From contig CDPCPM010000063.1 in the NCBI GenBank assembly GCA_976551045.1, forward strand, positions 7,874,001 to 7,938,000: 64,000 nucleotides of DNA, written 5' to 3'. A program made the translations under genes and the position numbers. The notes under the pieces were generated by a model. That model was not told the origin of the DNA and did no database searches. It saw only the letters and a program-made list of their open reading frames with translations. This DNA is from Glaucostegus cemiculus (taxonomy: Eukaryota). Within the stretch, counting starts at the first letter, position 1; each line of letters starts with the position of its first letter. Shown in pieces: positions 33,043-64,000 of the stretch.

Positions 33043-33211
33043 TTATGTACCCATTTTTGGTTTGGTATTTAATTCCTTTTCCAAAAGATCACCCAGTTTT
33101 TCAATATTATTCTTCAGGCGATTGTAGGTATCATCCTGTTGTCTGTGGAGCATTATTATAGTTTTCTGTAAGTTTGAAACCGTTCTCATGATTGCTAACA
33201 CCCTTTCCTCA
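33043..33211 (-). CDS. TRP-like channel last coding exon (coiled coil, stop)
   Basis: ttttttcag|[55 protein letters not shown]; phase 2 start matches the upstream exon. Confidence 0.8.
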
Positions 33212-63200: not shown

Positions 63201-64000
63201 TGCAACACATAAAAAAGTTTATTCACCAAGCAATCTCAAAAGATGCAAGTAGAGGTGACCCCTGCATTATGGGGGGAAGGTGGTTGCATTCCTAGTGAAT
63301 GGTCTGCATTGTGATTTTTCATAACGCAAAGCTGTGTTAACTGTGCATATGTTAAGAAATGCAAGTTGAATGAAAATAAATTTGGTGTTTATTTACTTTC
63401 CTTCTGTTCACAAATACTATGAGAGTGAATTTTATTCCATATCTCAAATTTTAGGCAGTGATTTGTGAATTCTGTAAGAGCAAAGTTCCATTACCCTAAT
63501 GGCTGTAACATGGAGGTCACCTGTAATAGGATTTAAAACAATAAAACTCTAGGCCAAAAGAATTCTGGGAAATTCCATTACAACTCAAATGTTGATGTAA
63601 AAAATATTTTGTTTTGCAAAAAGCAGTGGTCATATGGTGCATCACTCAATAACTTACTTACATTTACTTATTTTCAGTAGAAGCCAGCACAAGGCAGTCA
63701 TCTAACTCCCTTCTGAATGCTTGTAGAAAATCTGCTTAAACTATTTGTGCATATAAATTATTCTAAAGGTTAATCCCTTCTGGGAAAATAAAAGCCTCCA
63801 GCTCTCTAAACTACCTCTACACTTAAAAAAAAATCACTAAACAGACATAAATATTGCAGGCTTGTGAACAAAACAGAAAGCCTCAGTTAATTAATGATGA
63901 AAGATAACAAAATAGTTACTTACAATCCATATTTCTTCCATTTCAAGTCGATGAACTGTTGAACAACAGGGTGTTTTAAGACATTAAATATTTGGTGCTT
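33043..64000 (-). CDS. Divergent TRP-family (TRPV/TRPA-related, possibly TRPVL-like) 6-TM cation channel; 3' ten exons, 5' part outside window
   Basis: Hand-spliced exons 63924->64000, 59904-60012, 57905-58075, 48667-48734, 47950-48120, 46829-46947, 42924-43128, 41588-41795, 37445-37563, 33043-33211. All visible junctions are GT-AG and phase-consistent, with no internal stop (1416 nt). Motifs: pre-S1 [17 protein letters not shown]4-S5 [16 protein letters not shown], pore [14 protein letters not shown]6 [12 protein letters not shown]-helix-like [16 protein letters not shown]-terminal coiled coil. Confidence 0.9.
33707..34003 (-). mobile_element. tRNA-derived V-SINE-like SINE (young)
   Basis: Minus strand: A-box TAGTGTAGTGG, B-box GGTTCAATTCC, core GGTTTCCTCCGGGTGCTCCGGTTT, tail TTTCACTGTG...AATAAAG(ATCTT)n. 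Confidence 0.88.
34233..34527 (-). mobile_element. tRNA-derived V-SINE-like SINE
   Basis: Same family and orientation as 33707-34003. Confidence 0.85.
34905..35110. mobile_element. Old palindromic Penelope-terminus-derived element
   Basis: gcagaaaatgctggaagcactcagcacatcaagcagcatctg ... cagatgttgcc...ttccagcatttctg. Confidence 0.65.
36150..36934 (+). mobile_element. Degraded CR1/L2-group LINE fragment
   Basis: [26 protein letters not shown] and NYCPIC; homologous to 26660-26960. Confidence 0.65.
37445..37563 (-). CDS. TRP-like channel exon (C-terminal helical region)
   Basis: attgtag|[39 protein letters not shown]|gtaatt; phase 0->2. Confidence 0.8.
40774..40861. repeat. Perfect 44-bp tandem duplication
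   Basis: ACAAAATCTTAAACTGTGCTGTTGCAATCACAAGTGATACTAGG x2. Confidence 0.95.
41588..41795 (-). CDS. TRP-like channel exon (TRP-helix region)
   Basis: atccag|[26 protein letters not shown]...LKITVFEIK|gtaagt; phase 2->0. Confidence 0.88.
42128..42296 (+). repeat. Near-identical copy of the Penelope fragment at 49844-50010
   Basis: Direct alignment by eye; only scattered substitutions. Confidence 0.85.
42924..43128 (-). CDS. TRP-like channel exon (pore helix, filter, S6)
   Basis: tttgtag|[67 protein letters not shown]|gtaagt; phase 1->2. Confidence 0.92.
44280..44370 (+). mobile_element. Harbinger transposase N-terminal fossil
   Basis: [25 protein letters not shown] resembles the HARBI1-like N-terminus (LSxEQCxRRLRFxKxxVxxIC). 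Confidence 0.5.
44490..44790 (-). mobile_element. tRNA-derived V-SINE-like SINE
   Basis: Same family as 33707-34003. Confidence 0.85.
44795..45172 (+). mobile_element. LINE (CR1/L2 group) 3' end with A-rich tail
   Basis: [20 protein letters not shown]...[14 protein letters not shown], followed by a short UTR and A-tract at 45160-45171. Confidence 0.7.
46829..46947 (-). CDS. TRP-like channel exon (S4-S5 linker, S5)
   Basis: cctgtag|[39 protein letters not shown]|gtatga; phase 2->1. Confidence 0.9.
47950..48120 (-). CDS. TRP-like channel exon (S3-S4)
   Basis: catttag|[56 protein letters not shown](K)|gtgagt; phase 2->2. Confidence 0.85.
48667..48734 (-). CDS. TRP-like channel exon (S2-S3 linker)
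   Basis: tattag|[22 protein letters not shown](W)|gtgagt; phase 0->2. Confidence 0.82.
49790..52020 (+). mobile_element. Degraded Penelope-like element split by a Rex1 LINE
   Basis: 5' part SVLSKDLSF...[10 protein letters not shown]...IAIKTTD*GG; resumes after 51395 (DTS..., CKFEEQHL); terminal CTGATAAAGGGTCTTTGACCTGAAA region at about 51920-52020. Confidence 0.7.
50290..51395 (+). mobile_element. 5'-truncated Rex1/Babar-clade LINE
   Basis: [64 protein letters not shown]-type tail. Confidence 0.9.
52619..52670. repeat. Perfect 26-bp tandem duplication
   Basis: CTAGAAGTGGCTAGACATGTCTCCTC x2. Confidence 0.95.
52700..53272 (-). mobile_element. CR1 LINE 3' fragment
   Basis: Minus strand [12 protein letters not shown] region ([22 protein letters not shown]) and CR1 3' UTR. 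Confidence 0.7.
53734..54493 (-). mobile_element. Solo LTR (760 bp)
   Basis: TGTTAC...GTGACA termini, 4-bp TSD TTGT (53730-53733 and 54494-54497), minus-strand AATAAA at 53792-53797, internal ~60-bp imperfect direct repeat. Confidence 0.8.
55315..56005 (-). mobile_element. Degraded, internally deleted CR1 LINE
   Basis: CR1 3' UTR (aagaaatagaagcaggagtaggcc) and RT remnants ([11 protein letters not shown]). Confidence 0.6.
56020..56362 (+). mobile_element. tRNA-derived V-SINE (HE1-like) with CR1-type tail
   Basis: tagtggtgtagccagtt A-box, ggttcaatcc B-box, gtttgcactttctc core, tail gaagggtctgtttctgtgctat...ctacgattcta. Confidence 0.75.
57290..57502. mobile_element. Short palindromic Penelope-terminus-derived element
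   Basis: Long inverted arms gctggaggaactcagcaggtcagacagcatctgtggagacagag..ggtcga / tcgacc..tctgtctccaaagatgctgcctgacctgctgatttcctctagc, then ccagattccagcatctgcagtttcttgtgtct. Confidence 0.8.
57905..58075 (-). CDS. TRP-like channel exon (S2 and start of long S2-S3 linker)
   Basis: tttcag|[57 protein letters not shown]|gtaatt; 171 nt. Confidence 0.88.
58189..58385 (+). mobile_element. V-SINE-like SINE 5' part
   Basis: cagtggtgcagctagtagagc A-box, gggttcagtcc B-box, gtggagtttgcatgttctccc core. Confidence 0.75.
59270..59625. mobile_element. CR1 fragment with internal inversion
   Basis: Minus LEYCVQLW...[13 protein letters not shown] abuts plus-strand [16 protein letters not shown]...FKTEINRF. 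Confidence 0.6.
59904..60012 (-). CDS. TRP-like channel exon (S1)
   Basis: ttttcag|; (F)[39 protein letters not shown]|gtaaaa; phase 2->0. Confidence 0.85.
60897..62027 (+). mobile_element. 5'-truncated fish-type L1 (L1/Tx1 group) ORF2 C-terminus and 3' UTR
   Basis: Open ORF to 61614 with [11 protein letters not shown] and the zinc-knuckle [15 protein letters not shown]-rich UTR, AATAAA at about 62009, A-rich tail; 17-bp TSD AATAAT(T/G)CTGCTATGTG at 60880-60896 and 62028-62044. Confidence 0.9.
62455..62545 (+). mobile_element. 91-bp CR1 3' tail insertion with 5-bp TSD
   Basis: gatcagccatgatc...gaagggccgaatggtctacttctgctcc(tattgtc)2; AAGAT on both sides; empty site visible in the paralogous copy at about 60179. 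Confidence 0.8.
63250..63525. mobile_element. Tc1/mariner (Tigger-like) MITE
   Basis: Imperfect terminal inverted repeats TA-GAGGTGACC... / ...GGTCACCTG-TA with TA on both flanks; no ORF. Confidence 0.55.
63924..64000 (-). CDS. TRP-like channel exon (pre-S1 helix), cut by window edge
   Basis: [25 protein letters not shown], donor TT|gtaagt. Confidence 0.85.

Follow-up and report, generated by a model that had tools for sequence, protein, structure and literature searches.

An intact TRP channel gene of Glaucostegus cemiculus assigned to the trpw2 branch of the TRPVL family, and its neighbour trpw1

Gene structure and completeness

We analyzed a window of 64,000 nucleotides (nt) from Glaucostegus cemiculus (contig CDPCPM010000063.1, G000:C63:7,874,001-7,938,000), whose minus strand carries a TRP channel gene, hereafter the focal gene. 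Exon junctions were fixed by eye and with a script, using ray and shark proteins as guides. The focal gene has 21 coding exons, a coding sequence of 2439 nt for a protein of 812 aa, a single terminal stop and GT-AG signals in 20/20 introns, and it encodes four ankyrin repeats, a six-helix TRP domain and a helical C-tail in this order. The focal gene is thus real and intact, and the splicing predicted from splice signals and homology would join the following exons (window positions unless a contig is given).

G000:C63:7,938,951-7,974,723, upstream of the window: exons 1-9, with the ATG, the N-terminus and four ankyrin repeats
63924..64000, minus strand: exon 10 of 21, pre-S1 helix; begins 15 bases beyond the window
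59904..60012, minus strand: exon 11, S1
57905..58075, minus strand: exon 12, S2 (E391, N394), cytosolic helical extension and family motif CHPCWP
48667..48734, minus strand: exon 13, return helix of the S2-S3 hairpin
47950..48120, minus strand: exon 14, S3 and S4; family N and D replaced by Y450 and G453
46829..46947, minus strand: exon 15, S4-S5 linker and S5
42924..43128, minus strand: exon 16, pore helix, filter FRISIID570NY and S6 INLLIAML
41588..41795, minus strand: exon 17, TRP-like helix without Trp
37445..37563, minus strand: exon 18, C-terminal helix
33051..33211, minus strand: exon 19, long C-terminal helix, likely a coiled coil
30763..30847, minus strand: exon 20, outside the span of the preliminary description
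23784..23808, minus strand: coding portion of exon 21, ending in the stop codon TAA, outside the same span
23706..23711, minus strand: ATTAAA, possible polyadenylation signal by consensus match only

A preliminary description of the window, made from its letters alone, had reported ten in-phase exons of about 470 aa without a stop between 33043 and 64000. Indeed, these exons (64000->33051) are genuine, with canonical AG/GT sites, 1408 nt when joined, 469 codons and 0 stops, and all four motifs quoted in that description lie on the minus strand of the window. Given a local stop frequency of 0.059 per codon, the chance of a 469-codon open frame is ~4e-13 under a null that ignores exon choice. 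However, the ten exons are only the middle of the 21-exon gene. The stop assigned to 33043 is an artefact of reading through a splice donor, below which the gene runs on through two more exons (30847-30763 and 23808-23784). The last exon (window 23750-23808, minus strand) ends ~10 codons before its counterpart in Narcine. The bases past the stop codon still encode KERNT, as in the Narcine orthologue.

Upstream of the window, the ATG at G000:C63:7,974,723 and a first coding exon of 9 nt lie in a CpG-rich patch (28 CpG per 300 bases), and a 26-nt micro-exon is among the nine upstream exons. Ankyrin-coding exons had been expected there; four repeats were found, starting at residues 115, 148, 182 and 215, with a degenerate fifth at 248. 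Pfam analysis of four orthologues or close relatives returned ankyrin repeats and no WD40.

Orthologues and paralogues

The focal protein is 84% identical to its Mobula counterpart, 79% to that of Narcine, 60% to catshark XP_038666132 and 41% to lamprey proteins. RefSeq models exist for the orthologues, which are labelled 'TRPA1-like' or 'uncharacterized' in databases. The entry P0085 is an orthologue that branches outside sharks and rays and groups with them at 100/100; its source is likely a chimaera, with a bony fish as the alternative.

Three paralogues were found in the genome, namely B (contig C63), C (C106) and D (C290). Paralogue B is trpw1 and lies at C63:8.18-8.24 Mb on the same strand as the focal gene, with ~210 kb between the focal gene start and exon 19 of B; the two proteins share 41% identity, and B is 96.8% identical to a Pristis protein. 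Among the 14 exons compared, the boundaries are identical to those of the focal gene in 13/13 modelled exons of B and of C and in 12/12 of D, the modelled set including neither exons 9 and 18 of any paralogue nor exon 4 of D. Phases are the same and lengths often so (151, 162, 110, 92, 171 and 119 nt in all four genes), and these shared introns indicate that no retrocopy is involved. Over the membrane region, identity to catshark is 62% for the focal gene versus 80% for trpw1. Paralogue D (G000:C290:2,814,500-2,834,600) has the longest branch, a single GC-AG intron and, at the position of the filter Asp, His-His; its membrane region forms an open frame of 374 codons, and its tree row carries one X.

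Family members were found in a sponge, cnidarians, annelids, molluscs, a brachiopod, a nemertean, echinoderms, hemichordates, amphioxus and tunicates and, among vertebrates, in lampreys, sharks, a chimaera, coelacanth, frogs and teleosts. Whole-protein searches of the PDB and of a representative protein library were dominated by ankyrin proteins, family members making up ~29 of the 150 matches listed. Among these matches the trpw2 branch was not seen in any named bony vertebrate, although such searches cannot show absence. The trpw1/TRPVL entries P0253, P0202, P0140 and P0163 carry misleading labels (XCAT2, TRPA1, pyrexia-like and TRPV1-6-like), and P0163 looks like a fusion of two TRPA genes in one model. 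No paper was found behind 'XCAT2', the label on a Xenopus trpw1 entry.

Phylogenetic placement

A tree of 59 rows and 327 columns was built from the four genome paralogues, 43 family proteins chosen for spread among ~190 family rows (isoforms included) and 12 outgroups. The outgroups were seven TRPV, two TRPC and one TRPN from the same genome and two cnidarian-type TRPA domains from P0163, with subfamily labels that are our reading of the sequences. The TRPVL family formed one clade apart from all outgroups (99/97; 96 under the mixture model). Within it, the focal gene, C, D and three lamprey rows formed the trpw2 clade (100/100 in both the 59-row and the full-length trees; mixture model 100), and B grouped with frog, coelacanth and teleost genes in the vertebrate trpw1 clade (98/92; mixture model 86). 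In the full-length tree, tunicates fell outside trpw1+trpw2 (93/88), which indicates a duplication in the vertebrate stem. The approximately unbiased (AU) tests on the orthogroup of the focal gene rejected its grouping with TRPV (p=7e-7), with cnidarian TRPA (p=0.028) and with trpw1 alone (p=1e-14). Moreover, the focal gene is 30-38% identical to the six family rows checked, sponge included, and 12-19% to all 12 outgroup rows. TRPV was joined to TRPA by long branches at weak support (86/80), so the trees do not decide between TRPA and TRPV as the sister of TRPVL. Neither a search with a cnidarian TRPA query nor the PF00520 listing revealed the TRPA1 of this genome, so no vertebrate TRPA1 is in the trees.

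In the available sections of Mayeur et al. 2024 (PMC11979771), vertebrate TRPVL channels are termed 'Trpw' and described with 4 ankyrin repeats and six membrane helices; trpw1 occurs also in frogs and teleosts, trpw2 is present in three copies in catshark with relatives in lamprey, the olfactory expression concerns trpw1, and the duplication history of trpw2 is left open. Synteny, residue analysis and trpw2 expression were not found in the main-text section of PMC11979771. The set of one trpw1 and three trpw2 genes in G. cemiculus and their topology match this published pattern, which identifies the focal gene as trpw2. The focal gene thus almost certainly belongs to the TRPVL family and its trpw2 branch. 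The orthology with Xenopus and teleost genes is held by paralogue B and not by the focal gene. Like the focal gene, each of catshark trpw2.1-2.3 belongs to a trio of paralogues that cluster with lamprey genes and stand apart from trpw1, with 4 ankyrin repeats and 6 helices; XP_038666132 is the orthologue of the focal gene (60%, 100/100) in this other species.

The preliminary description had proposed a TRPVL-like lineage distinct from TRPV1-6 and TRPA1, and the placement within TRPVL (99/97) bears this out, as do the AU results for TRPV and, with the two cnidarian TRPA rows, for TRPA. Its family call from raw sequence was correct and its premise of novelty was wrong. TRPVL, which it took to be generally thought absent from vertebrates, had been published there in 2024 as 'Trpw' (available sections of PMC11979771), and the lineage it supposed lost in bony vertebrates has trpw1 orthologues in frogs, coelacanth and teleosts.

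Gene neighbourhood

Upstream of the focal gene, a LYR-family gene is followed by an IMD/WH2 gene, then by trpw1 and a strumpellin gene; we take the three neighbours other than trpw1 to be NDUFB9, MTSS1 and WASHC5, in the order of human 8q24. The LYR-family gene stands head to head with the focal gene and has an exon 5.8 kb from its ATG, and a shared two-way promoter at G000:C63:7,974,400-7,980,800 is possible. In catshark, the contigs carrying the orthologues of the focal gene and of trpw1 are equal in length (191,882,600 nt).

Paralogue C lies between three Argonaute genes and an AP-2 gene, the latter ~100 kb from C, and paralogue D between a Frizzled and an EXTL3-type gene. The focal contig carries an AP-2 gene at 5.68 Mb, 2.2 Mb from the focal gene, and a Frizzled gene at 19.15 Mb; this gene and the one beside D are the only two Frizzled genes split at profile position 274/275. 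The focal contig is 0.9% of the assembly, and each paralogue match is therefore unlikely by chance (~1% and ~4%, calculated by hand). About 200 kb downstream of the focal gene, at G000:C63:7.68-7.70 Mb, is a plakin gene, presumably desmoplakin, whose scanned part contains seven plectin repeats.

Predicted structure, selectivity filter and putative calcium site

The predicted model of the Narcine orthologue, standing in for the focal protein, has a pLDDT (predicted local distance difference test score) of 77 for the whole and 91 for the membrane part, and contains pre-S1, S1-S6 and a pore helix. Six hydrophobic segments had been read from the sequence. The hydropathy scan does give six peaks, but two of them overlap and S4 has no peak of its own, and it is the Narcine model that provides six helices plus a pore helix. 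Its S2 is one 52-residue helix that reaches into the cytosol, and the chain turns back after CHPxWP. This hairpin is the long S2-S3 insert pointed out earlier, and it is a trait of the whole family, in which the CHPxWPxE hairpin is kept (H in 181/183 rows, W in 179/184, E in 184/186). Foldseek placed TRPA1, TRPV3, TRPV5/6 and Nanchung-Inactive about equal, at 13-19% identity to every solved chain listed, and the best whole-model matches were TRPA1. By sequence, the best matches among solved structures (PDB) were TRPV6/5 (E 7e-8), over S4-S6.

The filter FRISIID570NY aligns ungapped with FRLTIGMGD of the TRPV4-like gene of the same genome, with Ile in place of Gly; compared with the genome's own TRPV genes, the focal gene has no TIGMGD-type filter of TRPV1-4, as had been stated. 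Asp570 lies six residues past the pore-helix Phe and probably occupies the place of TRPA1 D915, for which we assume the same spacing. In the excerpted text of PMC8036557, TRPA1 D915 is the upper gate. The filter Asp is kept in 170/184 family rows, and the next residue, acidic in 159/184, is Asn in the focal gene. A TRP helix had been judged missing; the helix is in fact present and aligns with WKLQRAITILDLEK of the TRPV1/2-like gene of this genome, while its Trp is indeed replaced. This position is Ala in 151/183 family rows and Ile623 in the focal gene; the TRPVL row of Table 1 in PMC9242649, a source available in part, likewise has Ala for the TRP-helix Trp.

Human TRPA1 binds Ca2+ through E788, Q791, Y799, N805 and E808, according to the excerpted PMC8036557. 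In the corresponding columns, 36/37 trpw1/invertebrate rows have E-x-x-[ED] in S2 and N-x-x-[DE] in S3, and one of the two cnidarian TRPA rows has E-Q-N-E, like human E788/Q791/N805/E808. The focal gene has E391/N394/Y450/G453 versus the family's E/E/N/D, so that three of the four residues are changed. Both S3 positions, N in 163/185 and D in 167/184 family rows (isoforms included), are among them. The motif is whole in 1/10 trpw2 rows (a lamprey) and broken in 9/10. In contrast, the filter Asp, the S6 NLLIA and the CHPxWPxE hairpin are kept in the focal gene.

Discussion

We consider it very likely that the focal gene is an intact trpw2 gene encoding a predicted tetrameric, Ca2+-permeable cation channel, probably without the Ca2+ feedback predicted for trpw1. 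From TRP biology, four subunits would surround a pore built by S5, the pore helix and S6, and a ring of four Asp570 would let cations pass, Ca2+ among them. Where the family has a second acid (D/E), the focal gene has Asn, which would make Ca2+ preference weaker than in trpw1, and with E391/N394/Y450/G453 at the S2-S3 site, inflowing Ca2+ would not tune gating there. By analogy with known TRP channels, the focal protein is probably a conducting channel. The altered columns tip the balance slightly towards a loss of Ca2+ feedback. A sensory or reproductive role, as suggested in the preliminary description, would be a conjecture for the focal gene, the olfactory expression in print being that of trpw1, and placing its action in epithelial or sensory cells of the head is a doubtful guess taken from trpw1 alone.

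Some of the evidence weighs against this explanation. The exon junctions are drawn from splice signals and homology, and a look for RNA support over window 41500-48800 turned up no run. Support for trpw1+trpw2 (92/81, 89 and 93/88) is below the starred bar. The rejection of TRPA is modest, with a partial outgroup set that has no vertebrate TRPA1, OSM-9 or Nanchung rows. The tree contains no accession-identical TRPVL reference: one supplement, available in part, gives the Capitella row 184604 the label 'Ctel-TRPV3', and this row was not matched to the record given as TRPVL in the available part of the other. The filter register is ambiguous, HMMER setting D542 of TRPV5/6 two columns further with a gap, so the equivalence of Asp570 and D915 is one that we infer. 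The Ca2+ site was read from alignment columns and not from coordinates; TRPC rows align in the S3 half only, and the second cnidarian TRPA has no Ca2+-site motif.

An alternative is that the focal protein does not conduct alone and assembles with trpw1 into mixed tetramers, in which it would act as a modifier. The focal gene evolves faster than trpw1 (62% versus 80% identity to catshark in the membrane region), it has lost family-invariant S3 residues, and paralogue D has lost the filter Asp; yet the filter Asp, NLLIA and CHPxWPxE are retained in the focal gene and its fold is confidently predicted, and we regard such a role as rather improbable. The S3 losses, together with a last exon ~10 codons short of that in Narcine, could also be taken as signs of a decaying, unexpressed gene, but 812 open codons, 20/20 canonical introns, a CpG-rich start and 79-84% identity to other rays make decay very improbable. 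Still harder to credit is a very divergent TRPV or TRPA1 member, for which the top PDB sequence match to TRPV6/5 (E 7e-8) and the top whole-model Foldseek match to TRPA1 would speak. This reading has already been largely refuted by the AU tests, by the identities of 12-19% to the 12 outgroup rows versus 30-38% to six family rows, and by introns that are the same as in trpw1.

For the origin of the intact trpw2 gene, the simplest history, and a fairly probable one, is tandem duplication first and genome duplication later. In the vertebrate stem, trpw1 and trpw2 would have arisen as neighbours through a local duplication, and whole-genome duplication would then have carried trpw2 into three blocks, leaving one retained copy of trpw1 and three of trpw2. 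The competing account, in which the three trpw2 copies arose by separate small duplications or transpositions, is in our view unlikely, although the branching inside trpw2 is unresolved and the lamprey and ray genes are not one-to-one. In addition, of the four neighbour families tested only two match (AP-2 and Frizzled), Argonaute and Exostosin having no paralogue on the focal contig, and a second MTSS-type gene is on neither of the contigs of C and D. Against separate duplications stand the Frizzled pair split at 274/275, on the focal contig and beside D, and the AP-2 genes 2.2 Mb from the focal gene and ~100 kb from C. More tentatively, and as a reading that we hold less likely than not, an S2-S3 Ca2+ site of the TRPA1/TRPC/TRPM type may have been kept from sponge to frog in this family, while in early vertebrates a neighbouring copy was stripped of it and spread by whole-genome duplication, which would have given sharks, rays and lampreys a feedback-free set that was lost in bony vertebrates.

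TRPVL has reportedly been treated by Peng 2015 and by Himmel and Cox 2020, which are known to us through citing papers. With trpw1 and invertebrate TRPVL, the focal gene shares the introns, the CHPxWPxE hairpin, the R-x-[TS]-x-x-D filter and a TRP helix without Trp; it differs from them by a longer branch, the broken E/E/N/D motif, fewer outer-pore acids (DNYNYQ versus DDYGFE) and the loss of SDTFQRVYDNA past S6. It resembles TRPA1 in its ankyrin repeats, the TRP-like helix without Trp, the Asp six residues past the pore-helix Phe and the top whole-model Foldseek match, but has 4 instead of 16 ankyrin repeats, no filter Gly, a long S2-S3 insert and 12-17% identity to the two cnidarian TRPA rows. 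In human TRPA1, ~16 ankyrin repeats and a G-D filter are given in the excerpted text of PMC8036557. TRPV5/TRPV6 provide the best PDB sequence match over S4-S6 and have a similar filter (I-I-D, without Gly), whereas the focal gene shows 17-19% identity to them, 4 ankyrin repeats and no WxAQ box, and is excluded from them by the tree.

The choanoflagellate 'TRPW' shares only its name with Trpw: in the available parts of bioRxiv 2026.06.15.732144 and.732245, WD40 repeats define it, animals are reported to have lost it, and TRPVL is kept separate. A channel of this type was ruled out for the focal gene by the ankyrin repeats and the lack of WD40 in the four orthologues or close relatives. Further TRP papers, each available in part, are PMC12980990, bioRxiv 2021.11.14.466824, PMC12503276 and PMC9664204. 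In a literature search outside whose coverage most subscription journals lie, no functional study of TRPVL, no other work on trpw1/trpw2 and no paper joining TRP channel, shark, MTSS1 and synteny was found.

TRPVL in vertebrates is already in print, and our contribution lies in the tandem arrangement, the broken Ca2+-site motif and a likely ohnologue relation. The family has no close solved structure (best identity 19%) and in databases is masked by labels like 'TRPA1-like', 'pyrexia-like' and 'TRPV3-like'. The trpw1/trpw2 pair offers a natural experiment on a four-residue putative Ca2+ site, and synteny offers an answer on the duplication history of trpw2.

Other features of the genome and the window

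Three tandem TRPV5/6-type genes at G000:C22:10.98-11.14 Mb have the filters MGLTELP, MGLIDLP and MGLLDIP rather than TIIDGP; judged by sequence, they are possibly trpv7/8 or 5/6 paralogues of chondrichthyans. A TRPN-like gene at G000:C59:5.84-5.85 Mb has its whole membrane domain in one 471-codon open frame. Two near-identical open frames of 1091 codons, at L072:8099 onward (plus strand) and L039:5160-8432 (minus strand), look to us like pol genes of long terminal repeat retrotransposons. Within the window, decayed frames lie at 27689-30018, 9693-11017, 18710-20942 and 60829-61611, some of them within introns of the focal gene, and we take them to be long interspersed nuclear element (LINE)/reverse-transcriptase-like.

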